Shown: piece after piece, positions 1 through 10,968 of the stretch
Layout: every line of letters begins with the position of its first letter
Position numbering within the stretch: the stretch's first letter is position 1
Assembly: GCA_028693335.1 (NCBI GenBank)
Contig: JAQUVR010000016.1
Location: 1-10,968 of the forward strand
Direction of reading: 5' to 3'
Length of the DNA stretch: 10,968 nucleotides
From: Candidatus Iainarchaeum sp.
GTDB lineage: Archaea; Iainarchaeota; Iainarchaeia; Iainarchaeales; CSSED10-239
The notes under the pieces: model-generated
Databases searched by the model: none
Seen by the model: only the letters and a program-made list of their open reading frames with translations
Told to the model about the DNA's origin: nothing
Position numbers and translations under genes: made by a program

Positions 1-523
1 GGTCGTAAACCTCATCGAACAGGCAGTTCAGGCGGCCTTCCACATTGGATGTCTCGTTTATGTGACCCAAAGTCTTTCCCGAAGGATCGTCGTCAAGCAT
101 CGCCGGCCAGATCTCCATAGGCATCGGGTTGCCGGTCCAGCCCTCGTAGGCAGTCGTGACGAACGGGCCCCTGAACGCTGTCGCGTCTGTACCGTCAATG
201 TCCACCTGCGCGGAATCGAGATAGCCGCCGAACATGAGCGCTCCCAGCCAGATGAACTCCGTGCCCGTTCCGCCAGGCATCTCGCCCGAAACAGCGGTCT
301 TGCCCGTGCAGGGGTCTTTCAGACCGAGCCACGGCTCGCCAAAAAATCCCATGTTGGATGTGTTCAGCCATAACAGGCCCGCCCTGTGCACCCTGTATTC
401 CATCGTCGGCCGGAGAGCTTTTGACGGAGCAAGATCAAAGCTCCGCAAACCGTATGACGGATCCGGCGCCGGAAAGAGGCTTATTGCGAATATGAAGATC
501 AGTAAAAGATTTATCTTTATCAT
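1..523 (-). CDS. Secreted protein of unknown function, N-terminal part (gene continues past the left window edge)
   Basis: The minus-strand frame is open from ATG at 523-521 to base 1; it is absent from the ORF track only because no stop lies in the window. Hand translation begins MIKINLLLIFIFAISLFPAPDPSYGLRSFDLAPSK (signal-peptide-like) and continues ...EYRVHRAGLLWLNTSNMGFFGEPWLGLKDPCTGKTAVSGEMPGGTGTEFIWLGALMFGGYLDS.... It is GC-rich like the right flank. The + strand ORFs 62..373 and 234..536 are its antisense shadows. I recognise no family. Confidence 0.65.
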   Translation of the reverse strand, partial: MIKINLLLIFIFAISLFPAPDPSYGLRSFDLAPSKALRPTMEYRVHRAGLLWLNTSNMGFFGEPWLGLKDPCTGKTAVSGEMPGGTGTEFIWLGALMFGGYLDSAQVDIDGTDATAFRGPFVTTAYEGWTGNPMPMEIWPAMLDDDPSGKTLGHINETSNVEGRLNCLFDEVYD

Positions 524-624
524 GCCGATAATTTAAACATACACTGAAAAATATGCAATTCTATATTAAATTAAATGATGAAGACGGTCATGGTTAATGG
601 TGTATAGAAAATTGCTTTCTGTAA
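515..624. repeat. Repeat B, copy 1 (5' region and first three codons of the left flank gene)
   Basis: 515-572 matches 4983-5040 with one mismatch over 58 nt. Looser similarity with indels then runs through gacggtcatggttaat to attgctttctgtaa (611-624 vs 5077-5090). Confidence 0.85.
530..558 (-). promoter_or_regulatory. Candidate sigma70-like promoter for the left flank gene, implying a leaderless or near-leaderless mRNA
   Basis: The minus strand reads TTGCAT, 17 nt, TAAATT, atcggc, ATG. The -10 element ends 6 nt before the start codon and there is no Shine-Dalgarno sequence. An identical arrangement is present in repeat B copy 2. Confidence 0.3.
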
Positions 625-721
625 CCGTACGATATTCTCGTACACTTCGCATAAGGTTCTCATAAGTTCGCATTATTTTTGCATAATAGGTTTTAGTGCT
701 CATAGCTATTAAATCACTTAA

Positions 722-808
722 AACTCTCTTAAATTATTTTCTATTTATTTAAGAATTAGCTACAAACTCTCTTAAACTCTCTTAAAATTCGCTAAAAACT
801 CCCTTAAT
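722..808. repeat. Iteron-like direct repeats AACTCTCTTAAA (three exact copies, one degenerate)
   Basis: Exact copies lie at 722-733, 765-776 and 775-786, with a degenerate copy AACTCCCTTAAT at 797-808. Start-to-start spacings of 43, 10 and 22 nt are close to whole helical turns. They sit in a 590-bp region with no convincing ORF. Confidence 0.45.
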
Positions 809-1214
809 TAATCTTTTATTGCATTTCAATATAGATAAAACATAATTTAGCAATAGTAATATTTTCGGTAGAATAATTAAAAGAAAGTGGAATCGACTCA
901 GAAAGTGGGTTTTACTAACGATTGGTGAGGCTCGGCGCGATTTGTCCGGGGTGGCTACAGATATGTAGGTGCTACCTAATGTAGCGTTGCGATCCGTAAT
1001 CAATACATTTTGGGATCATATAAATACAGCATCGGTTTCAGGATCGCCAGTACGAAATAACGGCAATGGCAAAAAGCAAACTGTTATCTCTCTGTTTCTT
1101 TATACAATTTAACAAAATTATGTGTCAAAAAACAGTGTACACTACAGTTAGGAAAAACGAATCTTCATCGGGAGTATTTTTTGCGTTATTATCTGTGATA
1201 AAATCATTAGTTAC

Positions 1215-2204
1215 CTATAATTTCTTATATTTTGCTATAATTTCTTTTAAAGCTTTAGTTTGTGCGTCATTCAATGTCATTTCATAAGCATATTTTCCAA
1301 CAAATCTTACATCAATTTTATCTGATTCAGCAATTTTAAAGATAGATTTATCTAAATTATCGATACTATTATCAGACCACTCTTTTACACCGTTGCCAGA
1401 GGTATCAGTTTGTTTTTCAGGATAGTCACAATTAATTTCAATCTGTATATTATCAGCATGTACTATTACTTTGTCATAAAACATCCAGTTATCATTGCTA
1501 TATTGAGTTCTTAACCTTAGAAATTTGCTACCAGATTTATTTTTCACTATATAGAATTCAAAAGTTAATAAAGCCCTACCTGAATGTTGACAAGTGAGTC
1601 TTTTTGTCTCATAAAAAATACAGGATTGCATCTTATCTTCAGTTTCAGAAATAAATTCTTCAGATTCATATTCGTAAAGATATTTGTTATATATATTTCT
1701 TAATTTGATTGAATCATTTTTATTCAAAAATAAATTATCGAAATCATCTTGGATGCTGGAAATCTTTTTACCTAAAGATAGTGATTTAGTTTTATTAAGG
1801 GTTGATTTTAAATTACTATTAGAAATTTTATCAAGTTCACTGATTTTATTGTTACTATTTTTTACTAAATCACTGTTGGGGTAAAATGTAGTAATCATGT
1901 TAAATAACAAAAACGCTTTCTTCAATTGGTTTAATTTCAGGAATTCTATTCCTTTTTTATAATAGTATTCAGGTGTTTGGGTAGCTTCATTGTATCTGAC
2001 CTGTAATTCATTCTTTTCTTTTGTGCAATTCTCAATCTTACTAGATAAATCATTGTGTTGAGTTTTTAATTCTTCAATTTCCTGTAAAAGTTTAACTTTT
2101 TCACTTTCAGAGTTACTATATTTAGAATTGAGCTCAGTGAATTCTCTTTTTGAAACACAGCTAATTAGGAATAAAGCAAATGTTAATAGTATTATTTTTT
2201 TCAT
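1215..2204 (-). CDS. Lipoprotein with a coiled-coil N-terminal half, function unknown
   Basis: 329-aa ORF. The N-terminus MKKIILLTFALFLISC has a lipobox-like LISC, and GAGG lies 8 nt upstream of the ATG. The first ~70 residues after the Cys are heptad-like and rich in E/K/L/Q. I cannot name a family for the C-terminal half. Confidence 0.75.
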   Translation of the reverse strand: MKKIILLTFALFLISCVSKREFTELNSKYSNSESEKVKLLQEIEELKTQHNDLSSKIENCTKEKNELQVRYNEATQTPEYYYKKGIEFLKLNQLKKAFLLFNMITTFYPNSDLVKNSNNKISELDKISNSNLKSTLNKTKSLSLGKKISSIQDDFDNLFLNKNDSIKLRNIYNKYLYEYESEEFISETEDKMQSCIFYETKRLTCQHSGRALLTFEFYIVKNKSGSKFLRLRTQYSNDNWMFYDKVIVHADNIQIEINCDYPEKQTDTSGNGVKEWSDNSIDNLDKSIFKIAESDKIDVRFVGKYAYEMTLNDAQTKALKEIIAKYKKL

Positions 2205-2398
2205 TTTTTACAACCTCGCTATTTAAATTAAAAAACACATATTGCCTTATCTGTCATGGTAAATGCCCACTAGGTAAAGATAACAAGGGATAGGGTATCA
2301 TGTCAATGTTCTCTGTCTATAGTGATTAGTTTTATGATAGATTATTGATTTTTCCATTTTGCTGTCTCGAAAGTGTTCAATAAATGTCTAAAGAAAAT

Positions 2399-3760
2399 TT
2401 AATCTGGAAATTCATTTCCTTTTTTTCTATTTAATTTTAAATCCTTTGATTTTAAGAATCCAAATTGTGCGTTTAAAGAGTCGTAGTATTCTTCGTCTTC
2501 TTTTGTCCAGTGTGAGCAGTCTAAGTATATAAAATCTTCAGAAGTTCCTTCGTTTAATTTTGGTGGTTCAGTAGCTATTCCAATTATAGAATGCAATTGC
2601 TTAAATTTATTCTTGGTTACCCCACAAGCTATTTCAAGTAATTGTTGCCTATAAGGACGATATTCGTTGTCGTAGTCGGAAATAGGATCAATCTTTAATT
2701 GGAGAAATAGATATGCCCTGTTTTTGTGAAACGATTCTATGTAAGTTAATAAACGAACAAAGGGTTGTTGCGATTGAGGAAAATTATTTATTGCACGCAC
2801 TATTCTATCTGAAAGTTCCCTTCTATGAAAACGTGGCTCCATTGCCATATAATATATTGCATTTTTATTGTTAAATATAGATGCACCACGAGTGATACCA
2901 TCGAGGGCATATTGGCACGTTTTCTGAATTAATCCATCCCAAACGTAAGAAATTTCATCAGATTTCTTTTTCCTTTTAAAAATATCACTTTGTTCGAAAT
3001 CTTTCCATTCACCTTCACCGATAATAATCATATTTACTTTTTTATCCTTGTAACCTATGAAATGAGTATGATTCGATTCATCGTAATTTAACATGTAATG
3101 TGCGAGTAAATCTTCTTCACCACAGTATATTAAAGCCTCATAGTTATTAATTGCTGATATTTTTGCCTCCAAGTATCTGGAAAAGTCATAAAATGTATCG
3201 AGTTCTTTAAATATCAATTCAAGGTTTTCGCTATCAAAAATATGTACAGGATTGTTTTTATCTAAAGTTATTAAAAATGGAAAAGGAATATTGTCAGATT
3301 TATCACCATAAATTATAGCCAAACTACCAAAAACATTTTCATCAGAAAATTCCCTACATGCATCTTTAGCTCCATGAGCGATTACAATTTTGTGTACAAT
3401 CATATTATTCGTATCAATTTTTATAGGGAAAGGAGATTTTAATTCCACATCAAGAAATATTTTAGCATTTCTTCTTATATATTTTTCAGCACCATGTGCA
3501 GTTTTAATTTGCATGTCAATTGCTTTTTTTTTCCATCTTTCCCAGTTTGTTATTGTGTCACCTTCTTTTTTTAATGATAAATTCTCTCTATCATAAAAAA
3601 TAAATACATGATTGCCGAAAATAGCCAGTAAATCACACAACTCTTTTTTATCATCTTTGATTGGATTGGGGTAACTCCATAATTTCAAGAAAGTATTTTC
3701 ACACAATTTAGCTAGAAGATTTTCCGTAGGTGTTACACCTTCTGATTTCGTGATCTTCAT
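2399..3760 (-). CDS. Hypothetical cytoplasmic protein (453 aa), family not recognised
   Basis: Long ORF with GGAG 5 nt upstream of the ATG and no signal peptide or TM segment. The N-terminal segment LCENTFLKLWSYPNPIKDDKKELCDLLAIFGNHVFIFYDRE loosely recalls the strand core of restriction-endonuclease-like folds, but I cannot identify catalytic residues. Confidence 0.8.
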   Translation of the reverse strand: MKITKSEGVTPTENLLAKLCENTFLKLWSYPNPIKDDKKELCDLLAIFGNHVFIFYDRENLSLKKEGDTITNWERWKKKAIDMQIKTAHGAEKYIRRNAKIFLDVELKSPFPIKIDTNNMIVHKIVIAHGAKDACREFSDENVFGSLAIIYGDKSDNIPFPFLITLDKNNPVHIFDSENLELIFKELDTFYDFSRYLEAKISAINNYEALIYCGEEDLLAHYMLNYDESNHTHFIGYKDKKVNMIIIGEGEWKDFEQSDIFKRKKKSDEISYVWDGLIQKTCQYALDGITRGASIFNNKNAIYYMAMEPRFHRRELSDRIVRAINNFPQSQQPFVRLLTYIESFHKNRAYLFLQLKIDPISDYDNEYRPYRQQLLEIACGVTKNKFKQLHSIIGIATEPPKLNEGTSEDFIYLDCSHWTKEDEEYYDSLNAQFGFLKSKDLKLNRKKGNEFPD

Positions 3761-3806
3761 GAAATCTCCGCATTGTTTTTTAAATGATGCTCAACAAATA
3801 CTAGTT

Positions 3807-4280
3807 CTACATATCTAAACTTTCAAGTTCCCAAGAATCGCCGTTACTTTTTAGAACACAAATATAATACGTTCGGATATTTGCGCCAAAACTATTTTCA
3901 GAATCAACATAAGCTGATACCTTGTATTTATTGTTTCCTAAATTTGATACTTTCGCGTCCAAAACAGAACAGAAATCTGCGGTAGCCGGTGCTTTTAAGT
4001 TTTGTTCAACAAATCGCTGGCTCATCACAAAAGCCATTCCGCTATCATCTGAATTACGACGAGAACTGCTTGATTTCTGTTCAGGTGGAGGTCTATATGA
4101 TGATGACCCGCCATATTTGGCTGAAAAAGAAAATAATTTGACAAGCAAATATACGAGTATAATCAAAACTAAATAATTTAAGCAACTGCCCTTTTTTTTG
4201 GGAATATAACCGCAATTGGGGCAGGATTTAGCTTTTGTGCTAATATCTTTTCCGCATTCTTTGCATTTTCTTAATGCCAC
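3807..4280 (-). CDS. Membrane-anchored zinc-ribbon protein with a small extracytoplasmic C-terminal domain
   Basis: GTG start 4 nt after AGGAGG. It has a CKEC-x10-CPNC zinc ribbon, a hydrophobic helix LNYLVLIILVYLLVKLF, an S/P-rich linker and a C-terminal globular part of about 80 aa (...YKVSAYVDSENSFGANIRTYYICV...). Confidence 0.8.
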   Translation of the reverse strand: MALRKCKECGKDISTKAKSCPNCGYIPKKKGSCLNYLVLIILVYLLVKLFSFSAKYGGSSSYRPPPEQKSSSSRRNSDDSGMAFVMSQRFVEQNLKAPATADFCSVLDAKVSNLGNNKYKVSAYVDSENSFGANIRTYYICVLKSNGDSWELESLDM

Positions 4281-4288
4281 AAAACCTC

Positions 4289-4816
4289 CTATTCATTTGC
4301 CCTTTCAGCCAACATTCTGCCTGTAATAATGCCAAGTGTAATAGCAATGACAACTCCTGCAACAATTTTAAAATTATCATTGCCCTCTCGGTCTTTTATA
4401 TTTTCTTCTTTAAAAGCAGAACTAGAGTTGATTTTTATGTTAGGATTTAATGTCTTGAAAAATTCCGCTTGGCAACTATAACAAGAATTAAGCATATCGG
4501 GTCTACGTTCGTCAATTATGTTTACAATATCAGCCCCCAAATAGCTTGCTTCTTCTCGTAACATTCTAATCGCATCGGATTCTCTACAACCAGCGGTAAA
4601 GGCATTGTCTCTTAATTTGATTTCTCTAATTTTCTCATAGGCATTAGAATTAAAGCTTGAGAATTTCACAATAGATATTTCTGCTGTCGATTTTATATCT
4701 TGTGAGTTCTGTTCTTTTTCGTAGCCCGATCGTTTTACTGTATAAGATGTACAGCCTGAAATAAAGAAAACATTCAGGTATAATACGATCATCAGAAACA
4801 CACTACTCTTTAACAT
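4289..4816 (-). CDS. Lipoprotein with a C-terminal TM helix, function unknown
   Basis: The N-terminus MLKSSVFLMIVLYLNVFFISGC has a lipobox-like ISGC, and the C-terminal stretch IVAGVVIAITLGIITG is hydrophobic. The Cys-containing middle (AGCRESDAIRMLREEASYLGADIVNII...SCYSCQAEF) loosely recalls RcsF/DUF4156-type lipoproteins. Its TAG stop overlaps the AGGAGG of the next gene. Confidence 0.75.
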   Translation of the reverse strand: MLKSSVFLMIVLYLNVFFISGCTSYTVKRSGYEKEQNSQDIKSTAEISIVKFSSFNSNAYEKIREIKLRDNAFTAGCRESDAIRMLREEASYLGADIVNIIDERRPDMLNSCYSCQAEFFKTLNPNIKINSSSAFKEENIKDREGNDNFKIVAGVVIAITLGIITGRMLAERANE

Positions 4817-4935
4817 TTTTATCTCTCATGTTTAAACTAACAGCAACTCCTCTGTTTTGAACAAGTTTTTCGCATACTGTACGGACAAACGTCATTTTGT
4901 TTTTTTGTATATATGAATTATCCGTCTGCCATTTT

Positions 4936-4988
4936 AAAAATTATGATAATTTAATTATGATGTCAACGAGTTTCTTATTTTTCTTTAT
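4936..4988. repeat. Repeat A, short copy (promoter segment only) ending in the junction core CTTTAT
   Basis: aaaaattatgataatttaattatgatgtcaacgagtttcttatttttctttat differs by one base each from 7453-7505 and 10663-10715. Confidence 0.9.
4938..4966 (-). promoter_or_regulatory. Candidate promoter (TTGACA, 17 nt, TAATTT) for the module I operon
   Basis: The minus strand reads TTGACAtcataattaaattatcaTAATTT, about 120 nt upstream of the 4816 start. The same sequence is conserved in three copies in the window. Confidence 0.5.
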
Positions 4989-5090
4989 CATGCCGATAAT
5001 TTAAACATACGCTGAAAAATATGCAATTCTATATTAAATTATTTGGAGACGGTCATGGTTAATACGGCAAATTATCATTGCTTTCTGTAA
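4983..5090. repeat. Repeat B, copy 2 (internal; fused on its left to repeat A and on its right to the Bro-N pseudogene)
   Basis: See copy 1. This copy retains the ATG ATA AAG of the left flank gene, but here it opens only a 16-codon chimeric ORF (MIKKNKKLVDIIIKLS). Confidence 0.85.
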
Positions 5091-5506
5091 ATAGGTTTTC
5101 ATAGCTCTGTCGAATGAAAGTTCAGGATCTCCAGTCTCTTCGATTCTTTCATAACCCGTTTTAGCAAGCCAAAGCTTAAAAGGTTCCGCCCTTTGGCGAA
5201 GGAATTGACTGAACTACACGCAATAAATCTTCTGTTGAGAAGCAATCTGTAGCATAAAACTTGCCGTCACTAGCCTCAAATTTCAGTTGTACGATTTTTT
5301 CGTACACCTCACTTCCTTCTTTTTTGAGCTTCTTCTTTAAGTCGCTCCAATAACGTTTGGAAATAGATGAATCAGTCAGAATCTCTATCATATCAATAAT
5401 TGAAAAATACCAGAGTTCATTATCTCCGTCCCAAAATCGCCGGACTTGTTTTTGGTTGTAGCACAGATAATTTGTGTCTTATTACTTTTTTCTCTGCTGT
5501 TGTCAT
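5081..5506 (-). pseudogene. Bro-N/DinD-like pseudogene (3'-truncated, at least two frame disruptions)
   Basis: Nucleotide- and protein-level paralogue of the N-terminal ~135 codons of 8234..9124. AAGGAGG precedes the ATG at 5506-5504, but the homologous frame (NQKQVRRFWDGDNELWYFSIIDMIEIL...) is offset by one base from that ATG. An extra base near 5188-5191 ends the tracked ORF at PSPKGGTF*, and homology resumes in another frame (AEPFKLWLAKTGYERIEETGDPELSFDRAMKTYLQK). The gene stops at the junction with repeat B. Confidence 0.85.
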
Positions 5507-5632
5507 TTTATTCCCTCCTTTTCTGAAATATAATAAATCATTTTTCGTTAGGAAAGAAGCTTAAGCAGACATATCATTTTTTATTTTTCCTCTTATTTAA
5601 TTAACCGCACTCTCTCGTTAACCTTGCCCATA

Positions 5633-5704
5633 ACGGTCATGAAAAAAAGATCACAAGCAAACATAACACGGTAAAGTCATATAGCCAATGTTAGCGGTTG
5701 TGTG
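5633..5704. repeat. Repeat E, copy 1 (~70 bp, between the cargo genes and the Bro-N copy)
   Basis: It shares acggtcatg, a similar cacaag...cat segment, an exact 11-mer tagccaatgtt and ggttgt with 9145-9220. By eye roughly two thirds of positions are identical, with a 4-nt length difference. Confidence 0.6.
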
Positions 5705-5707
5705 TAA

Positions 5708-6499
5708 TTATTCAATTTTCATTCGAGAATTATTCTTTAGAAGTACTGCTATGTCATTCCTTTTTTTTATTATTACAGTATCAAAAATATCTTGGATAAA
5801 AGGAGCGATTAAATATTGAGAATTTTCTCCAGGTGATATTCCATTGTCTAAAGCATCAATATAATCACTTGACATCATATAATGGTCATTTAAATAGAAT
5901 ACATAAGAAAAATGTTGAATAAAAATATCATTTAAATCAGAAGAAAACAAATCTAACATTTTAAGTCTTACAGGATTATAGATCTCGTTATCATTAGAAA
6001 GTACATTATGAAAAAAATTGTAATGAGTATTATCGTTGCACCTTTCTCTAATCTTTTTGTACCTTTTGTCTTTATCAAGTAGTAAAGTAATCGGTTTCAA
6101 CAGACAAGAATTTTTTATATAGCTTGAAATTATCCTATATTCGGGAATGGTTTCAATTCCCTCTATCCACTTGTCAATCTGTTTAACTATAAGATTATCG
6201 ATACTGTAATTATTTTTTAGATAAAGATTTAAGTAGACATTTATAAATGTGGAATCATAATATTTTCTTAGAAGAGCATACGCATCATTAATACGACCTT
6301 TTAATAAAACATCCCGTATTGAATCAAGCGTTCCATGCATCGATGAGAAAATATGAGCATCAAGGTTGTTTTCGATCTTAGTTCCTAGTAATATAAAATA
6401 CATGATAGAGTCAGATAATGAATTGTAAAAATCTGCAATCTCTTTCAACTCAGAGAATACTATGTGCCCAGTATAATTTTTATTTATAAAATTATTCAT
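5708..6499 (-). CDS. Hypothetical cytoplasmic protein (263 aa) with a possible HEPN-like R-x5-H motif
   Basis: The ATG overlaps the upstream stop (ATGA at 6496-6499). No signal peptide. Motif KKIRERCNDNTHYN (R153-x5-H159, nt 6023-6043) and an earlier helix GRINDAYALLRKYYDS recall HEPN/Abi-type proteins. This is motif-level only. Confidence 0.7.
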   Translation of the reverse strand: MNNFINKNYTGHIVFSELKEIADFYNSLSDSIMYFILLGTKIENNLDAHIFSSMHGTLDSIRDVLLKGRINDAYALLRKYYDSTFINVYLNLYLKNNYSIDNLIVKQIDKWIEGIETIPEYRIISSYIKNSCLLKPITLLLDKDKRYKKIRERCNDNTHYNFFHNVLSNDNEIYNPVRLKMLDLFSSDLNDIFIQHFSYVFYLNDHYMMSSDYIDALDNGISPGENSQYLIAPFIQDIFDTVIIKKRNDIAVLLKNNSRMKIE

Positions 6500-7212
6500 T
6501 TTGAATTTTGATAGCTAGTCAATATTCCATTTTCAAAGTATAAATATAAATTACTATAAACCCATTGTTCATGGATACCCCAATCACCGACAGTTTTATT
6601 TATATTATTGGGGTTACCTAAACTTATTGAGGCCATTTCAACCGTCATTCCCACCCAGTAATAACCATTAAATAAGTCCTCGCCGATATTTTTCCCGAAT
6701 TTATCCGTTAAAAACTTTTTGTACTCTTGTTTCTTCTTTTTATTAAAATTGATCTCATTTTCTTGCTTTTCTTTAATTATATTTTCTCTGAAAAGTATAA
6801 TATCTTCTGTTTCGGATAAAATAGACTCAAAAACATAACCGATATGTTCGTCTTTTTTTACAAGCCATGAATTTTCTTTAACAAATTTTTCGTTAAAACA
6901 GTAATCTAGCAAAATTAAAGTATCATTTATTTCAGTCTTGAATAAAATATCTGAGTACATTGAATTTTCTTTTCTAATCTCACCTTTTGATTTGCAAACA
7001 ACTTTTATAGAATTTTTCCCTTTCAACTCAATTAGTTTTTTTTGCATAATGTATTTATCCAAGTCATTTTTTACTATCTCTAATGAATCTGTTTTTGACT
7101 TTATTAGATTTTCTAATCGCAATCTATCTATTTTTAAATTCGCGATATTAGAATCTATACTTTGACATAGCAGAGCACTTTGAATAACGAATAATACAAT
7201 AATGAACTTCAC
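6496..7212 (-). CDS. Secreted protein with a coiled-coil segment and a C-terminal BamE/SmpA_OmlA-like motif
   Basis: GTG start 5 nt after AGGAGG. Signal peptide MKFIIVLFVIQSALLCQS. The C-terminus GYYWVGMTVEMASISLGNPNNINKTVGDWGIHEQWVYSNLYLYFENGILTSYQ fits the GMT...LG.P...E.W.Y...YL.F.NG.L pattern of small BamE-like domains. Confidence 0.75.
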   Translation of the reverse strand: MKFIIVLFVIQSALLCQSIDSNIANLKIDRLRLENLIKSKTDSLEIVKNDLDKYIMQKKLIELKGKNSIKVVCKSKGEIRKENSMYSDILFKTEINDTLILLDYCFNEKFVKENSWLVKKDEHIGYVFESILSETEDIILFRENIIKEKQENEINFNKKKKQEYKKFLTDKFGKNIGEDLFNGYYWVGMTVEMASISLGNPNNINKTVGDWGIHEQWVYSNLYLYFENGILTSYQNSK

Positions 7213-7262
7213 ATGATCCTCCTATAAAAAACAATTTAAATTACACATTTCCGCTAACGAGC

Positions 7263-7288
7263 GGCTAAGCGAATGGTTTCGTTTAGCC
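7263..7288 (+). other. Conserved 11-bp-stem hairpin in the repeated leader
   Basis: ggctaagcgaa-tggt-ttcgtttagcc. All pairs are Watson-Crick except one G-T, which is a G-U wobble only if read as + strand RNA. It is conserved at 10524-10547, with a degenerate second copy at about 7313-7337. Confidence 0.45.
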
Positions 7289-7454
7289 GTGACATTTGCG
7301 CCTGTTTGCGGAAGCTAAGTGAATGGTTTCGTTAAGACTGCATGTTTGAACCTATTTCAAGAAGCTATATGCCACAGCGGTGCTTTTTTCTTCTGAATGT
7401 GAAAGAGCCTCATGTGTTTACCTTGTTCGATCTGTATTCTTATCTCAGTCAGAA

Positions 7455-7483
7455 AAATTATGATAATTTAATTATGATGTCAA
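7455..7483 (-). promoter_or_regulatory. Candidate promoter A (TTGACA, 17 nt, TAATTT) upstream of the module II cargo
   Basis: Identical hexamers and spacer to 4938-4966 and 10665-10693, followed by a ~240-nt leader before the GTG at 7212. Confidence 0.5.
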
Positions 7484-7516
7484 CGAGTTTCTTGTTTTTC
7501 TTTATTGAAAGATATA

Positions 7517-7573
7517 TTACATTAGTCCGTCAGCGAGGATCTTGAGGCCGATGAGGATCAATACAATGTCGTT
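7517..7573 (-). pseudogene. Displaced remnant of the mntP 3' end (last ~17 codons plus stop)
   Basis: The reverse complement reads DIVLILIGLKILADGLM*, against GGIVLILIGLKILADGLM* in the intact gene. There is no upstream coding continuation. Confidence 0.9.
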
Positions 7574-7584
7574 CGAGTAATATA

Positions 7585-7613
7585 TTGATTTAAGCGAAAA
7601 AAATTTGTATATT
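7585..7613 (+). promoter_or_regulatory. Candidate promoter for the + strand antitoxin-like/DUF2442 genes
   Basis: TTGATT, 17 nt, TATATT, ending 45 nt upstream of the ATG at 7659. Confidence 0.4.
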
Positions 7614-7658
7614 GAGATCAAGTAAAGAAAAGAAGCTTATTTATAAAGAAGTGATTAT

Positions 7659-7853
7659 ATGAAACTGCATACTCAGATCATAGAAAAAGAAGGAAAGAAA
7701 GAATTTGTTGTAATACCTGTCAAAGAATTCAAGATATTAGAAGAAATGATAGAAGATTACGAAGACCTTAGAGACTTAAGAGAAGCAAAAGCAAGCTCAA
7801 AAGGCGAAAAGGCAGTTCCTATTAAAAAGGTAATAAAAAGCCTGAAACTGTAA
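7659..7853 (+). CDS. Phd/YefM- or RelB-like type II antitoxin-like small protein
   Basis: 64 aa. KEFVVIPVKEFKILEEMIEDYEDLRDLREAKASSKGEKAVPIKKV matches the common short-antitoxin pattern (a strand, then an acidic EDxEDL helix, then a C-terminal tail). Confidence 0.6.
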   Translation: MKLHTQIIEKEGKKEFVVIPVKEFKILEEMIEDYEDLRDLREAKASSKGEKAVPIKKVIKSLKL

Positions 7854-7867
7854 TTAATATAGCCTAG

Positions 7868-7957
7868 ATGGAAATTCATAAAGAAGACCTGCAGGCTGAT
7901 TGGGATTTAGCAGTTAATGGTAAAACATCATTTCTGATAACGAGGTTAGACCAATGA
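7868..7957 (+). CDS. 29-codon ORF between the antitoxin-like gene and DUF2442 (doubtful)
   Basis: MEIHKEDLQADWDLAVNGKTSFLITRLDQ. Its TGA overlaps the next ATG (ATGA at 7954-7957). It sits where a toxin gene would be expected but is too short, and I do not recognise it. Confidence 0.2.
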   Translation: MEIHKEDLQADWDLAVNGKTSFLITRLDQ

Positions 7958-8193
7958 GAATAAAAAAAATTGAAGCTATGTCAAATTATATCCTGAGGAT
8001 CGAATCTGAGGGAGGTCAGATCGGAGATTTTGATGTTAAGCCTTACTTGGCTTATGAAGCTTTTATTTATTTAAAAGACATTGACCATTTCATGCGCGTC
8101 AGAAACGGCGGATATTACATAGAGTGGGACTGCGGTGCTGATCTTTCTGCCGATACTATTGAAGCAAAATGGAAAGTGCTCGTATCGGAATAA
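7954..8193 (+). CDS. DUF2442-family small protein
   Basis: 79 aa, with GAGG 7 nt upstream. The pattern ...NYILRIESEGGQIGDFDVKPYL...F..LKD...F..V...G..IEW.CGADLSADTI is typical of DUF2442. Confidence 0.65.
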   Translation: MRIKKIEAMSNYILRIESEGGQIGDFDVKPYLAYEAFIYLKDIDHFMRVRNGGYYIEWDCGADLSADTIEAKWKVLVSE

Positions 8194-8233
8194 CTAGCTC
8201 AATTGCTGTAAATGATCACTGCTTTCTGCAAAA

Positions 8234-9124
8234 TTATTCTTCGTCATCTTTTTCAGTCTTATCTAAAAAGTTATTTTCCTTACCGGTTAACAAGGTCTTT
8301 GCATTTTCCGGGCTTACTATACTTTCACCTGTCTGCTTTTCGATTTCTATTCTTGCCTGCTTTGCCGCAAATCCGCCCTTTTTTGCAACTTCAACATTTT
8401 CATGAAAACCATCCGGTTTCTGCTTTTTAGATATTTCTGAAGTCGAAGCTTCCGCAAGCATATTTAAAACCAGTTCAAGGTTAGTCATATTGTCTCTCAA
8501 GTTTTCTTTCTTGAGATTCTTCAGCTTTTTATATTGCTTTACCGATTTATCTGACCACGCTTTTGTAATCTCATCTGTCAAAATAGCATAATCCTGCTCT
8601 TTCTTCATTCCTCTTTCTTTCCACTCATCAGTAAGCTCTTTCCTGACTTCAATACTCTTTAACCTCTGATTGATCCATTCCTTAGAATACCCTTTCTGTA
8701 AATAGGTTTTCATAGCTCTGTCGAATGAAAGTTCAGGATCTTCAATTTCGTCTATTCTTTCTCTTCCAACTTGAGCTAACCATAACTTGAACGGTTCTGC
8801 TTTCGGAGACGGAACAGACTGAATAAGCCTGAACAGTTGCTCGGTATCAGCGACATCGGTAAGCCTCATTTTGCCGTCAGCAGCCATCATTTTCAAACTG
8901 TGACAATTTGTCACGGTTTCATTTCCCTCTTTTTTCAACCGTTCTTTCAATTTACGCCAATATGCACCTGAGTCAATACTTTCAGTAAGCACTTCGATCA
9001 CATCAATAATAGAAAAATACCACTGTTCATTATCTTCGTCCCAGTGGCGACGGACTTGTTTTTGATTGAATAAGATTATTGAGTTTGAGTTTTTCATTGT
9101 ATGTTTAAGCTCCTTTATTAACAT
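8234..9124 (-). CDS. Bro-N domain / DinD-like (phage antirepressor-like) protein
   Basis: WYFSIIDVIEVLTES...YWRKLKERLKKEG...LKMMAADGKMRLTDVADTEQLFRLIQSVPSPKAEPFKLWLAQVGRERIDE is the widespread Bro-N-type N-terminal module. The C-terminal half (...NLELVLNMLAEASTSEISKK...AKKGGFAAKQARIEIEKQTG) resembles the DinD C-terminal region. The track start at 9145 is a TTG. I prefer the first ATG at 9124 (AGGGGTGAAA upstream); 9097 is an alternative. Confidence 0.8.
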   Translation of the reverse strand: MLIKELKHTMKNSNSIILFNQKQVRRHWDEDNEQWYFSIIDVIEVLTESIDSGAYWRKLKERLKKEGNETVTNCHSLKMMAADGKMRLTDVADTEQLFRLIQSVPSPKAEPFKLWLAQVGRERIDEIEDPELSFDRAMKTYLQKGYSKEWINQRLKSIEVRKELTDEWKERGMKKEQDYAILTDEITKAWSDKSVKQYKKLKNLKKENLRDNMTNLELVLNMLAEASTSEISKKQKPDGFHENVEVAKKGGFAAKQARIEIEKQTGESIVSPENAKTLLTGKENNFLDKTEKDDEE

Positions 9125-9144
9125 TTTCACCCCTAAAGCCTTCA

Positions 9145-9220
9145 ACGGTCATGGCTAAAAGCACCACACAAGTCACAATGAACCAGTCAGTTTCATGTAG
9201 CCAATGTTGTCTGGTTGTTG
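9145..9220. repeat. Repeat E, copy 2
   Basis: See copy 1. It sits between the stop of the FGE-domain gene and the start of the intact Bro-N gene. Confidence 0.6.
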
Positions 9221-9270
9221 TTATAAATATCGTTAATTGCCTAAGCTACACAAGTTAGAATGAAATACTA

Positions 9271-10431
9271 TCATGGTGTTCTCACAATCCGAAAGCCCAA
9301 GTCGTAAGTGCTGCTGTTCGGGCTGAAGTATTTGTAGCGATAAGCAACACGACAGGTGCTGGTACTACTGGCCCAACCACCACCATGTAGAACACGATTA
9401 GTCCCATTAGTAGGTCCATAAGGGTCAGTCACTGTTCCCAGATCATTACAAGTAGTGTAATAACTGCTTCCATACCAATCCCAACACCATTCATATAAAT
9501 TTCCAGTCATGTCATAAATTTCAAGCTGATTAGGTGCTTTTGTACCAGTGGGTTTTGAACCGTAGGGATTATTATTCTCGGTATACCAAGCAACTGTACT
9601 AACTGTATCGCTACCGCTGTAACGATAATCGTCAGTATGATGACTACCACCTCTCGCAGCATACTCCCACTCTGCTTCTGTAGGTAGTCTGTAGCCATTG
9701 GCAGACCAGTTACATTCTACAGCATTCCATGTAGAGTCTGAACTAGTCGGCACCGTTCCCCAGATATCTGGATCTGTTGAACTATTTATAGTATAACACG
9801 GAGTGATGCCTTCGGCTATGCTCCTTTTATTACAATAAACCATTATTTCATACCAACATACAGAGTAAGCCGGATAATTGTCACCCGTTCCGTAAGAACT
9901 CCAATCCTTAGCAGGCATATAAATAGTCCATTCAGACTGTGTTACCTCGCATACTCCCATGTAAAAATCACTAACTGTCACACTATGTAAAGGTGTTTCA
10001 TCAATAGAACCTTCGTTAAAATGATCACCCATCTGGTATGTACCTCCTTGAACAAAGACCATCTCAAGGGAGTCTGTTACAGTTATTACTTTGCTATCTG
10101 TATCTGAATCCTGCCCATCGCTAACTGTAACCGTAATTGTATAAGTATAGTTGGTATTTGGAGCTGTCCAAACTGTACTTGAACCAGTTGTTGTAGAAAG
10201 ATCACCACCTGTCGATATCCAGCTGTAGGTCAAACTATCTCCATCATCGTCTGTTGCGCTACAGCTTAAATCTACTGTTCCACCTTGCTGAACAGATGTC
10301 GCCGATGCTGTCATACTGTTAATCAACGGAGTATTGTTTGTCGGTTCTGTACCTCCGTCATCATCAGAGCATGACAAAAAAATCATTCCTAGTAGCATAA
10401 AAGTAAGTAAGATAGGTATCCATTTTTTCAT
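9271..10431 (-). CDS. Lipoprotein with a PKD-like Ig domain and a C-terminal formylglycine-generating-enzyme (SUMF1/FGE-sulfatase, C-type-lectin fold) domain
   Basis: Preferred start is the ATG at 10431, 6 nt after AAGGAG, giving MKKWIPILLTFMLLGMIFLSC (lipobox). PKD-like segment: SATDDDGDSLTYSWISTGGDL...WTAPNTNYTYTITVTVSDGQDSD. FGE-domain hallmarks: MVFVQGGTYQMGD, ETPLHSVTVSDFYMGVCEVTQSEW, GYRLPTEAEWEYAARGG, YDMTGNLYEWCWDWY, RVLHGGGW and LGFRIVR. Confidence 0.85.
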   Translation of the reverse strand: MKKWIPILLTFMLLGMIFLSCSDDDGGTEPTNNTPLINSMTASATSVQQGGTVDLSCSATDDDGDSLTYSWISTGGDLSTTTGSSTVWTAPNTNYTYTITVTVSDGQDSDTDSKVITVTDSLEMVFVQGGTYQMGDHFNEGSIDETPLHSVTVSDFYMGVCEVTQSEWTIYMPAKDWSSYGTGDNYPAYSVCWYEIMVYCNKRSIAEGITPCYTINSSTDPDIWGTVPTSSDSTWNAVECNWSANGYRLPTEAEWEYAARGGSHHTDDYRYSGSDTVSTVAWYTENNNPYGSKPTGTKAPNQLEIYDMTGNLYEWCWDWYGSSYYTTCNDLGTVTDPYGPTNGTNRVLHGGGWASSTSTCRVAYRYKYFSPNSSTYDLGFRIVRTP

Positions 10432-10523
10432 TTTGTTCTCCTTAGATTTAAATATCTTAGTTAAGCTTAGGCACATCTTTTATCCATAATATTTTGTAAC
10501 AATTGCACCTGACGTGCGGCTAA

Positions 10524-10547
10524 GCTAAGCGAATGGTTTCGTTTAGC
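10524..10547 (+). other. Conserved leader hairpin, second copy (10-bp stem)
   Basis: gctaagcgaa-tggt-ttcgtttagc, with the same G-T position as in copy 1. Confidence 0.4.
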
Positions 10548-10664
10548 CTCGACGTTTGAACCTATTTCAAGAAGCTATACGCCACAGCGGTGCTTTTTTC
10601 TACTGTATGCGAAAGAGCCTCATGAGTTTACCGTGTTCGATCTTTATTATTATCTCAGTCAGAA

Positions 10665-10693
10665 AAATTATGATAATTTAATTATGATGTCAA
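10665..10693 (-). promoter_or_regulatory. Candidate promoter A (TTGACA, 17 nt, TAATTT) upstream of the FGE-domain gene
   Basis: Starts 33 nt downstream of the mntP stop on the minus strand and is followed by a leader of about 230 nt. Confidence 0.5.
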
Positions 10694-10726
10694 CGGGTTT
10701 CTTATTTTTCTTTATCTGAAGATAAA

Positions 10727-10968
10727 TTACATTAGTCCGTCAGCGAGGATCTTGAGGCCGATGAGGATGAGTACAATGCCGCCGACGAGTTCGGCGCTCT
10801 GTCCCAGCCTTCTGCCGGCGCGCTTGCCGATGTTGACGCCGACGAGAGATATGACGAAGGTGGTGCATGCGATCAGGACGGCGGGATAGTATATCTCAAC
10901 ATCAAGAATAAGTATGCTTAAGCCGGCAGCGAGGGCATCTATGCTGGTCGCTACAGCCATAACGAGCA
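10727..10968 (-). CDS. mntP: Manganese efflux pump MntP, C-terminal part (gene continues past the right window edge)
   Basis: AVATSIDALAAGLS...GVNIGKRAGRRLGQSAELVGGIVLILIGLKIL matches the second repeat of the MntP/DUF204 family (compare E. coli MntP AVATSIDAMAVG...[20 protein letters not shown]). The frame stays open upstream of the tracked Met to base 10968. GC-rich. Confidence 0.85.
   Translation of the reverse strand, partial: LVMAVATSIDALAAGLSILILDVEIYYPAVLIACTTFVISLVGVNIGKRAGRRLGQSAELVGGIVLILIGLKILADGLM

Follow-up and report, generated by a model that had tools for sequence, protein, structure and literature searches.

The window, which is the whole stretch of DNA analysed here (10,968 nt), contains a 10.2-kb island of about 30% GC, compared with 40-60% in its flanks, that fills the gap between mntP, a manganese-exporter gene, and a secreted-protein gene on the left flank. 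The latter has homologues in Candidatus Delongbacteria, with which its signal-peptide N-terminus aligns, and its product is 1064 aa long in the relative L014. The 3.2-kb module described in the initial annotation is one of three units in this island. Let c stand for the mntP 3' end, b for a conserved element lying past the end of mntP, and a for the region upstream of the left gene. In the mntP sense, the island then reads mntP-c-b-(FGE, X4, Bro-N, DUF2442, RelB) for the first unit; a displaced copy of c, followed by b-(two ORFs, X3, Bro remnant)-a-ATGATAAAGA, for the middle unit; and b-(four ORFs)-a-left gene for the last unit (U1). The features, with strand where one applies, are:

1-523, minus: left-flank secreted-protein gene, 5' part; start codon at 521-523 (translated)
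509-625: element a, copy 1, native left-gene upstream region; core 509-573, looser extension to about 625
626-4935, minus: cargo of unit U1, four ORFs and about 600 nt without an ORF
4936-4989: element b core, copy 1 (repeat search, motif census)
4982-4991, minus: duplicate of the left gene's initial 10 nt, ATGATAAAGA (compared with native L014 sequences)
4990-5095: element a, copy 2, with the core ending at 5041 and the extension at about 5095 (repeat search, BLAST)
5081-5460, minus: Bro-N gene remnant with internal deletion (repeats, BLAST)
5620-5697, minus: X3, attC-like boundary element, apparently degenerate (motif pair, alignment)
5708-7212, minus: two overlapping ORFs of 263 aa and 238 aa (ORF list)
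7249-7313: 65-nt imperfect palindrome, TTCCGCTAAC, central 11-bp hairpin, then GTTTGCGGAA
7261-7515: long repeat arm, left copy, holding a b core (7453-7506) and a 46-nt block (7440-7485)
7516-7578, minus: displaced mntP 3' remnant, an exact 43-nt block (7516-7558) plus diverged 7559-7578
7571-7590, minus: junction of toxin-antitoxin promoter flank and remnant, AATCAATATATTA/CTCGAAC (motif census, alignment)
7659-7853, plus: RelB/Phd-like antitoxin gene (Pfam)
about 7858-7957, plus: DUF4160 gene, 3' remnant (Pfam)
7954-8193, plus: DUF2442 gene, intact (Pfam)
8234-9097, minus: Bro-N domain protein, 287 aa (Pfam, PADLOC)
9140-9216, minus: X4, attC-like boundary element (motif pair, alignment)
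9271-10431, minus: FGE-sulfatase/PKD-domain lipoprotein gene, strain-variable (Pfam)
10510-10725: long repeat arm, right copy, with a b core at 10663-10716
10727-10968, minus: mntP, 3' part of the functional gene (Pfam Mntp, E 4.8e-23)

The four ORFs of U1 lie on the minus strand at 1215-2204, 2399-3760, 3807-4280 and 4289-4816, and profile searches of this cargo found no recombinase family. Family searches gave no assignment for the two-ORF unit, which is flanked by 20-nt inverted repeats (5690-5709 and 7239-7258). The Bro-N remnant of the middle unit shares 72-82% identity with parts of 8692-9068, within the intact Bro-N gene. That gene, the most frequent neighbour of the X elements, encodes a protein matching the PADLOC candidate defence family PDC-S13 (E 2.8e-136), with a DNA-binding fold that resembles DdrC and not a recombinase. 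The antitoxin gene stands without a partner in the window, the ParE toxin gene of L009 being absent, while the DUF4160-DUF2442 pair is intact in L002, which is 97% identical to the window over 7858-9145. Searches of the window with Pfam, NCBIfam, PHROGs and PADLOC found no integrase, transposase or other recombinase. Nor did any phage or plasmid record match the whole module, matches being confined to the Bro-N gene and 48 nt of the FGE-sulfatase gene.

Repeats and their reality

A repeat search of the whole window gave a direct repeat of 260 nt (7312-7571 and 10522-10781, 91% identity, offset 3210), and alignment of 7314-7571 with 10524-10781 showed 23 mismatches in 258 nt. The alignment confirmed that the repeats share an exact run of 43 nt (7516-7558 = 10726-10768), made up of 1 nt past the stop, the mntP TAA (10727-10729, minus strand) and the last 13 codons. 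The decay of homology beyond this block, also described initially, was found as well: it fades over 7559-7578, which is diverged and has a 3-nt gap. The arm is likewise diverged, though with 14 mismatches in 172 nt (7344-7515) and not 11 in 164. The proposed signature of a perfect core in diverged arms fared less well. The 43-nt block is exact, but the longest exact block in the repeat, of 46 nt, lies inside the arm (7440-7485 = 10650-10695). Random placement of 23 mismatches over 258 nt gave one run of at least 43 nt in 28% of trials and two in 1.4%; together with the observed runs of 46 and 43 nt, this points to two conserved blocks and not to a single core.

To the left, the repeat extends into a hairpin unit (7264-7288 = 10524-10548), and the left copy alone has a 50-nt tandem duplication (7264-7313 and 7314-7363). 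The 54-nt core of element b was found a third time, at 4936-4989, where it is promoter-like on the minus strand (TTGACA, 17 nt, TAATTT); the three copies are 96-98% identical to one another. A second repeat family joins 509-573 to 4977-5041 at 97% identity, and the extension of the second copy of a gave 82% by BLAST with L004.

Repeats of this kind raise the question of whether two co-existing strains with different cargo were merged through the c-b repeat during assembly. The exact blocks of 46 and 43 nt exceed the shortest overlaps of k-mer assemblers, the unitigs L004 and L021 from the likely source sample end inside exact blocks, and the L001 strain has another neighbour at 9240. Against a merger, the second copy of c is real in any case, because the remnant adjoins a toxin-antitoxin promoter and not the body of mntP. 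Moreover, L001, a MAG from another sample, covers 6599-9240 at 99.9% identity and with it, independently, cargo 2, the left arm copy, the remnant, and the toxin-antitoxin and Bro-N genes. In L009 and L020, from two data sets, mntP and the remnant lie 645 nt apart on one contig. L021 matches 9162-10667 at 100% identity and connects the FGE gene with variants specific to the right arm copy, L004 matches 544-4965 at 100%, and L005, from a third sample, crosses the 4989/4990 junction. Given these matches of L001, L021, L004 and L005, the repeat is not an assembly artefact, and a merger of strains is a very improbable source of the arrangement.

The same site in relatives

The window mntP is 99.2% identical to that of L009. 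In four other assemblies (L014-L017), whose mntP has 96% protein and 92.6% DNA identity to that of the window, the site begins with b behind mntP, continues with a restriction-modification system of 2.9 kb and an X element, and ends with element a before the left gene. In L018 it holds MazE-PIN and an ABC transporter, and in L019 only about 218 nt separate the mntP stop from the left-gene start. The left-gene protein is 94% identical in L014, L015 and L017, and 92% in L019. Element a is local DNA: L014 keeps it ahead of the left gene, and it is significantly conserved in the empty site of L019, where none of 500 shuffles reached its score. The same holds for b in the L014-type clade, as window positions 10626-10726 (about 100 nt of the arm) directly follow mntP there, in single copy and with no remnant; L014 is 95.6% identical over 10626-10968. 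It follows that the arm is duplicated local sequence and not an element-specific att arm. An earlier, related occupant, as first suggested, is indeed present on the far side. Because b was not significantly conserved in L019, the only empty-site relative, its local status derives from the L014-type clade, and b may alternatively represent the arm of an element.

A displaced mntP 3' end, as first described, was upheld and lies at 7516-7578. L001, L002 and L009/L020 carry this remnant too, and its junction with the promoter flank is identical in all of these and the window, that is, in every assembly that carries the remnant. Between remnant and mntP lies acquired, GC-poor DNA that differs from strain to strain, and the module is not a constant unit: mntP and the junction are separated by 0.59 kb in L009, where RelB-ParE alone intervenes, by about 1.55 kb in L002, and by 3.2 kb in the window. 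The FGE-sulfatase gene is missing at the matching position in both L001, where a different neighbour replaces it and which diverges from the window at 9240, and L002, which has no FGE gene. The remnant core in the window has the variants of the window's own mntP, while in L002 the remnant and adjoining b have L014-type variants, a pattern consistent with sequence exchange involving the remnant and an mntP end, whether resident or donor.

The initial annotation had read the module as the product of site-specific integration into the mntP 3' end. One form of such a reading would be a tandem accretion of integrase-less satellites, likened to cis-mobilisable elements, whose att site would include the mntP 3' end; a recombinase of the tyrosine or serine type, encoded elsewhere in the genome, would insert newcomers at the mntP-proximal site, and these would push older units and the remnant outward. 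The mntP 3' end does lie within direct repeats, and mntP stays intact. In several strains the remnant is always beside the toxin-antitoxin promoter, L009/L020 carry a minimal, repeat-flanked RelB-ParE unit of 0.65 kb directly after the stop codon, and the same site holds different cargo in each strain. Several junctions also fall inside a 16-nt palindrome after the mntP stop (TTTATC-TTCA-GATAAA), and a similar one is found at the left-gene start. However, this palindrome does not recur at other junctions, and a search for a dif-like site that would permit Xer hijacking found none. The arm adjoining functional mntP is the b that follows mntP in L014, which has no remnant, and the mntP-proximal boundary of the inserted DNA varies, lying directly after TAA in L009, within b in L002, and after GGTAAAC in the window and L014. 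The window has no recognisable recombinase, and no integrase-family domain was among the precomputed Pfam hits for genes within 10 kb of mntP in L014-L019, nor within that distance on seven related contigs, the related contigs being short or covering only 10 kb on each side of mntP. Finally, the U2/U1 junction uses the start codon of the left gene and not mntP: insertion at the mntP 3' end cannot yield the junction of left-gene start and mntP-downstream element at 4982-4991. On this evidence, site-specific accretion appears unlikely, although it is the most probable of the alternatives weighed here.

Boundary elements of the cargo

The X elements are framed by AAC...GTT and contain an inner stem, spacers that stay unpaired and a loop that varies, and the stem shows compensatory changes (GGCTAAA/TTTAGCC in L014 versus GGCAAAAA/TTTTTGCC in L010). 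They are found at synteny breaks, between the restriction-modification system and a in L014, between Bro-N and core genes in L010, and at the GTT end of X4, where L002 departs from the window. These features invite comparison with an integron-like array lacking a local integrase (CALIN-like), with cassettes bounded by X elements and the 7249-7313 palindrome, b as the array promoter or entry region, and the c-b duplication as a by-product of cassette traffic. The X folds beat shuffled sequences in L014 (z -3.4) and L010 (z -2.6), and the palindrome, folded as DNA, gives z -3.0 and -3.1 for its two strands. The two-ORF unit starts with TTAGCGG..., a 20-nt complement of the CCGCTAA... sequence flanking its own X3, and toxin-antitoxin pairs, a restriction-modification system and a candidate defence gene are typical array cargo.

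Neither complete X copy of the window has a significant fold, however (X3, z -0.4; X4, weak at z -1.2), and the spacer lengths are unlike those described for canonical attC sites (PMC5027507). The units are multi-gene and 1.5-9 kb long, far above typical cassette size; L001 diverges about 25 nt outside X4, past its other end, at no G/TT point; and an integron integrase was not seen in the window or near mntP in relatives. The X motif was absent from the viral contigs searched, and the duplicated 63 nt of mntP coding sequence and 10 nt of the left gene are left unexplained. An integron-like origin is accordingly rather doubtful.

Origin of the island

The reading we favour, with moderate confidence, is that of a hypervariable island at an mntP/secreted-protein hotspot of a Candidatus Delongbacteria genome, in which three 'alleles' have been concatenated by homologous and microhomology recombination. 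The repeats of about 300 bp are then most likely two copies of c-b, at the seam between the first and second versions of the island, and not the ends of a mobile element that integrates itself. The middle unit opens with the final 63 nt or so of mntP and closes with ATGATAAAGA of the left gene, the latter copy being fused to b through 8 common nucleotides, GATAAAGA (4982-4989).

We infer the recombination pathway and the order of events as follows. Illegitimate, microhomology-type joins would first have made the seams, one linking the toxin-antitoxin promoter flank to a point about 63 nt before the mntP stop, the other attaching the left gene's initial 10 nt to the GATAAAGA immediately behind that stop. 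The duplicated a, b and c could then have served homologous recombination that swapped or added cargo from related strains, possibly by Campbell-type insertion of a circle, unequal crossing-over, or DNA uptake guided by anchor homology. Going by minimal homology requirements, exact blocks of 43 and 46 nt should be long enough for RecA-type exchange and for gene conversion between copies.

Some points count against the recombination reading. Integrase-mediated integration would leave the same textbook scar, in which acquired DNA has a displaced 3' piece of a gene at its far end, here with a toxin-antitoxin pair adjoining, and the genome could encode a recombinase at another locus. The module as it stands is without mobility machinery of its own, and recombination between the repeats could probably delete it.

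Setting and composition of the island

The two ends of the window have a GC content of 48-60%, and the 10.2 kb between them is at about 30%. A secreted protein has its N-terminal part encoded on the minus strand of the left end (start codon 521-523; the left gene, hereafter); its homologues came from Candidatus Delongbacteria and have signal peptides that align with that of the window's protein. One of the contigs carrying part of the island is from a Delongbacteria MAG. Between the manganese-exporter gene mntP and the left gene lie three units that contain recurring elements: a, the upstream region of the left gene; b, an element downstream of mntP; c, the 3' end of mntP, with its displaced copy c* (7516-7578); and the attC-like boundary elements X3 and X4.

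Units of the island, each read in the sense of mntP
Unit next to mntP: mntP, c, b, then FGE-sulfatase gene, X4 (9140-9216), Bro-N gene, DUF2442 gene, DUF4160 remnant, RelB gene and promoter
Middle unit: c*, b, then 238-aa ORF, 263-aa ORF, X3 (5620-5697) and Bro-N remnant, followed by a and ATGATAAAGA
Last unit: b, then ORFs of 175, 157, 453 and 329 aa, followed by a and the left gene

Pfam, NCBIfam, PHROGs and PADLOC assigned no recombinase, integrase or transposase family to any ORF of the window, and neither Rfam (E up to 1) nor ARAGORN detected a riboswitch, tRNA or tmRNA in it that could have served as a target. A transposon or insertion sequence was discounted, as there was no transposase family and the 3.2-kb module beside mntP ends in direct rather than inverted repeats (258-310 nt). 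The commonest gene beside X elements encodes the Bro-N protein (287 aa, 8234-9097, minus strand), which is 71-90% identical to aligned homologues from very different phyla; those with a source name were from Anaerolineae, Bacteroidales, Deltaproteobacteria, Planctomycetes, Actinomycetia and candidate-phyla-radiation genomes. That the protein is so conserved from phylum to phylum suggests very frequent horizontal transfer of the gene. Along its whole length it matched PDC-S13, a candidate defence family of PADLOC (E 2.8e-136). Its structural model (mean pLDDT 69.6) resembled only DdrC, a DNA-binding protein of Deinococcus, at TM-scores of 0.30-0.48, and with a predicted fold that is DdrC-like only, it was rejected as a hidden recombinase. 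The same candidacy was rejected for the 453-aa protein (2399-3760, minus strand), which matched phrog_18195 alone, a family of unknown function, over nearly its full length (E 2e-45) and had no Pfam, NCBIfam, PADLOC or PDB relative, and for the 263-aa protein, which had no sequence relatives in the PDB. A known phage or plasmid was likewise set aside, the only matches being the Bro-N gene and a 48-nt stretch of the FGE-sulfatase gene (one plasmid); the mntP-end core and the X motif were absent from viral contigs. The second Bro-N copy (5081-5460) is decayed, 72-82% identical to the first, and has lost an internal part, which brings the 3' flank of the gene (5069-5091, similar to 8210-8232) up against its middle.

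Several features of the non-coding DNA were recorded. The left-gene start codon lies only about 6 nt past a promoter-like TTGCAT, 17 nt, TAAATT (524-560, minus strand), with no Shine-Dalgarno sequence, suggesting that its mRNA may be leaderless or near-leaderless. The core of b (4936-4989, 7453-7506 and 10663-10716, and 10566-10619 in the related contig L014) carries on the minus strand TTGACA, 17 nt, TAATTT, together with two direct AATTATGAT repeats and the near-palindrome TCATAAT-TAA-ATTATCA. It heads every unit and is oriented into the cargo, as if each unit had a regulated promoter of its own, the element being promoter-like by sequence. About 600 nt (600-1215) are without a convincing ORF and include a GC-richer patch and words like the 3' ends of ORF6N/Bro-type genes, especially at 900-1060. 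This stretch had no Rfam match and its folds were not significant, and a structured RNA at 880-1070 was dropped from consideration on account of its folds. On a 183-kb contig (L012), four near-identical copies of GGTGTCACTATATGACCGTCTCCGCATGTTATC (6960-7000, 7945-7985, 10995-11035 and 12120-12160) each lie about 45 nt upstream of successive ORF6N-domain genes, and the window has the ATGACCGTCTCC core of this repeat next to each copy of element a.

The displaced mntP end and the direct repeats

The module next to mntP had been described as bracketed by direct repeats of about 300 bp, and a repeat finder recovered them at 7312-7571 and 10522-10781 (260 nt, 91% identity, offset 3210). The part that aligns in register from 7314 to 7571 has 23 mismatches in 258 nt, and a hairpin unit (7264-7288 = 10524-10548) extends the repeat leftward. 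The left copy of the long repeat alone carries a 50-nt tandem duplication of the hairpin-containing unit (7264-7313 and 7314-7363, GCTAAGCGAATGGTTTCGTTTAGCC...). An exact block of 43 nt (7516-7558 = 10726-10768) comprises the final 13 codons of minus-strand mntP and their TAA stop, as first reported, and one base beyond it. The product of this gene matched Pfam Mntp (E 4.8e-23); mntP is intact to its stop, and the 3' end of the target gene is present in both direct repeats. Decayed similarity to mntP runs on to about 7578 with a 3-nt gap, so that the remnant corresponds to about the last 63 nt of the gene. The displaced remnant is real, and its extent is close to the 7517-7573 first proposed.

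The initial annotation had taken the repeat for a single perfect core inside diverged arms. That description is weakened by a longer exact block of 46 nt (7440-7485 = 10650-10695): the repeat has two conserved blocks, not one core. When the 23 mismatches were scattered at random, 28% of trials gave one run of at least 43 nt and 1.4% gave two. Two further repeats had been missed, namely a third copy of the 54-nt element b (4936-4989) and a second repeat family, element a, at 509-573 and 4977-5041 (97% identity).

An assembly artefact, the concern raised at the outset, was dispelled by contigs from other samples that span the remnant and the junctions. Contig L001, from another sample, matches 6599-9240 at 99.9% and runs through the middle-unit cargo, the left repeat copy, the remnant, the toxin-antitoxin genes, Bro-N and X4. 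Two unitig-like contigs from SRR22315505 (L004 and L021) match 544-4965 and 9162-10667, each at 100%, and both stop inside repeat blocks; L005, from a third sample, covers the junction of b and a at 4989/4990; and in two data sets (L009 and L020) mntP and the remnant lie 645 nt apart on one contig. Since all of these support the assembly, the duplication is biological.

Variable cargo and junctions among relatives

Four assemblies of the restriction-modification type (L014-L017) carry an mntP that is 96% identical in protein and 92.6% in DNA, and their left-gene region is 93.8% identical to window 1-597. Their order is mntP, b (corresponding to window 10626-10726), a 2.9-kb low-GC restriction-modification system, an X element, a and the left gene; they have a single mntP end and no remnant. 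Only about 218 nt separate the mntP stop from the left-gene start in L019, which is therefore an empty site, one seen solely in this more distant relative; element a is significantly conserved there and b (10626-10726) is not. In L018, mntP is followed by MazE-PIN and an ABC transporter. The mntP of L009 is 99.2% identical to that of the window; about 60 nt come directly after its stop, then RelB and ParE, encoded on the other strand and with their promoter, and then a remnant. Beyond this lie an FGE-sulfatase gene unlike the window's, three further genes, Bro-N and DUF2442. Because the contents differ among relatives, the interval between mntP and the left gene is a hotspot with strain-specific cargo. 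Homologues of the left gene on L006-L008 were rejected as synteny guides, being too distant (47-63% identity) and not having mntP upstream. The pattern of b had no match in JGI metagenomes and in reference genomes only one, a 2.8-kb MAG contig, and the mntP-end pattern found L020 alone, which is identical to L009.

The island is in these respects like the chromosomal hotspots of horizontal gene transfer between conserved core genes that Oliveira, Touchon, Cury and Rocha reportedly described in 2017: two conserved flanking genes surround low-GC, strain-variable cargo, which includes a restriction-modification system, toxin-antitoxin pairs, a candidate defence gene and unknowns, and there is an empty site in a relative and no local recombinase. 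It differs in that versions of the island are stacked in tandem, each keeping copies of a, b or c, including coding slivers of the flanking genes.

The relatives also disclose the origin of the repeat. About 100 nt of its arm (10626-10726) directly follows mntP in the L014-type genomes, which have no remnant, and is not conserved in L019. Given that this is the DNA ordinarily found after mntP in the L014-type clade, the repeat represents duplicated local sequence (c plus b) rather than an att arm specific to an element.

Where the remnant meets the flank of the toxin-antitoxin promoter (AATCAATATATTA followed by CTCGAAC), the join is identical in the window, L001, L002 and L009/L020; it arose once and was then inherited. 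From functional mntP to this join the distance is 0.59 kb in L009, about 1.55 kb in L002 and 3.2 kb in the window. The mntP-proximal boundary falls right after TAA in L009 and inside b, after ...CTGACT, in L002, and the window shares b with L014 as far as GGTAAAC. A different neighbour replaces the FGE-sulfatase gene from 9240 onward in L001, L002 is without that gene, and the window's RelB patch (7626-7858) is L009-like, with ParE lost. Since both content and mntP-proximal boundary vary among strains, the 3.2-kb module is not a unit. Instead of the fixed ends and insertion point expected of an integrative element, the strains show a constant distal junction, an mntP-proximal boundary that differs between L009, L002, L014 and the window, and cargo that is piecewise variable. 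What stood of the site-specific integrating element first proposed was the displaced mntP end and the acquired variable segment, and not self-contained integration; a recombination seam in a hotspot island is favoured instead. The initial annotation's suggestion of an earlier, related occupant was upheld, an older relative lying beyond the acquired segment.

The toxin-antitoxin region (7626-7957, compared with L009 1648-2238 and L002 167-439) has a RelB-like antitoxin without ParE, about 236 nt being missing relative to L009, and just the last ~100 nt of DUF4160 is left, upstream of DUF2442. With ParE lost and DUF4160 truncated, this region is a patchwork of two different modules.

About 63 nt of mntP open the middle unit, and a followed by the first 10 nt of the left gene closes it; there it is fused to the next b via a shared 8 nt, GATAAAGA (4982-4989). 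In effect the unit duplicates the entire locus between the two genes and takes in a sliver of each. Precise action of an integrase at the 3' end of mntP cannot produce this fusion of a and b; joining at a microhomology can. A simple recent tandem duplication was rejected, the two Bro-N copies being only 72-82% identical and the remaining cargo unrelated, as was a recombination palindrome (TTTATC-N4-GATAAA) after the mntP stop, which did not recur at other junctions or loci. In its exact core, the remnant of the window has the same variants as the window's own mntP, and the L002 remnant and its adjoining b carry L014-type variants. These patterns point to probable exchange between remnants and resident or donor mntP ends.

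On balance, we lean towards a concatenation of allelic versions of the island. The pathway that we infer behind the observed architecture, repeat origin and variability would begin with rare illegitimate joins, which would have made the seams. Homologous recombination via the duplicated a, b and c could then add or swap cargo from related strains, and gene conversion would keep the 43- and 46-nt blocks identical. A comparable process is homology-facilitated illegitimate recombination during DNA uptake, reportedly treated by de Vries and Wackernagel in 2002. As in that process, one side is anchored in a conserved flank and the other at a microhomology, here the 8 nt at 4982-4989, and the outcome is the same, foreign DNA inserted beside resident DNA. 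Unlike the described uptake process, the one proposed here is read from sequence in an uncultivated lineage.

The main rival, tandem accretion at mntP by a recombinase encoded elsewhere, is unlikely, even though it would account for the remnant, the neighbouring toxin-antitoxin pair and the minimal RelB-ParE unit of L009. Such accretion is said to have been described by Pavlovic et al. in 2004 for ICESt1-related elements of Streptococcus thermophilus, among them integrase-less, cis-mobilisable elements at the 3' end of a gene, and the island shares with it direct repeats that contain the target gene 3' end, tandem units without an integrase, and an intact gene. It fits poorly with an arm that consists of local DNA (about 100 nt from downstream of mntP), with boundaries that vary on the mntP side, and with a middle-unit junction that uses the left gene, the other flanking gene. 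Nor was a cognate integrase-bearing element present at the site in any relative examined, and among the genes called up to 10 kb from mntP in L014-L019, and among those of L009, no integrase-family Pfam domain was listed. Hijacking of Xer would be at odds with the absence of a 28-nt dif-like site (CATAA-N6-TTATGTWAAAT, up to 3 mismatches).

Boundary elements and meaning of the island

The X elements are recurrent sequences of 75-80 nt with the form ...ACAAC-AT-TGGCxAAA ... TTTxGCCA-TGAyC-GTTGT..., which lie at cargo boundaries: at 5620-5697 and 9140-9216 in the window, between the restriction-modification system and a in L014 (13484-13562), and between Bro-N and core genes in L010 (8950-9024 and 2-10). 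Partial copies occur in the window at 575-600 and 5042-5065, and in these, as in L014, X always abuts element a. The X elements show the frame of integron attC sites (PMC5027507), in which AAC/GTT is conserved and R and L boxes accompany unpaired spacers and a variable loop. The attC criteria used were at least 2 sites, R boxes with AAC/GTT, L boxes, extrahelical bases, a length of 55-140 nt and hairpin folding, and the X elements of L014 and L010 agree with these. Comparison of L014 with L010 reveals a compensatory change in the inner stem. Against shuffled sequences the folds scored z -3.4 in L014, -2.6 in L010, -1.2 for X4 and -0.4 for X3, so X3 and X4, folding no better than shuffles, were rejected as canonical attC sites. 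A separate 65-nt palindrome with an 11-bp central hairpin (7249-7313) had a z of about -3, and 20-nt inverted repeats at 5690-5709 and 7239-7258 (GTTAGCGGTTGTGTGTAATT and AATTACACATTTCCGCTAAC, including GTTAGCGG and CCGCTAAC) bracket two ORFs at 5708-7212. The right one overlaps the 65-nt palindrome. A related motif, AATGTGTAATTTA, occurs after the mntP stop in L009 and after an X end in L010.

That some of the cargo came as integron-like cassettes is suggested by the attC frame of the X elements, by the significant L014 and L010 folds, and by the palindrome and inverted repeats, but as an explanation of the array it is rather improbable. Two features are like those of integron arrays and of CALINs, clusters of attC sites without an integrase: cargo boundaries with imperfectly palindromic sequences (AAC...GTT frame, inner stem, unpaired spacers, variable loop), and a promoter-like element heading each unit. 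The units, however, are multi-gene, span kilobases and are far larger than normal cassettes; the window's own X copies have no significant fold; integron recombination leaves the duplicated mntP and left-gene fragments unexplained; and no intI with attI, which an integron requires and a CALIN does not, was found next to the array in the window, nor was an integrase-family domain listed in the relatives' flanks. Slighter still is the chance of a novel cassette platform in Candidatus Delongbacteria, in which each unit would have a b-core promoter-like head and an attC-like X tail and be shuffled between strains by a recombinase encoded elsewhere or a structure-specific mechanism; such a platform would be integron-like and mntP-anchored, with kilobase multi-gene cassettes and no linked integrase.

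The case has consequences for annotation, as a repeated gene 3' end around acquired DNA can arise in an island that is otherwise without signs of an integrase, and such a scar alone should not lead annotators to infer a self-mobile element. The locus documents, in an uncultivated phylum, a recombination hotspot with defence and toxin-antitoxin genes, where versions of the island are stacked in tandem, each with its own conserved promoter-like element. For now, the locus is best classed as an ordinary genomic island, variable and placed at a core-gene hotspot, whose history of recombination is unusually easy to read. The parts most worth attention are the attC-like elements and the promoter-like b core of each unit; if the attC-like X elements are functional, integron-type cassette traffic would reach this lineage.
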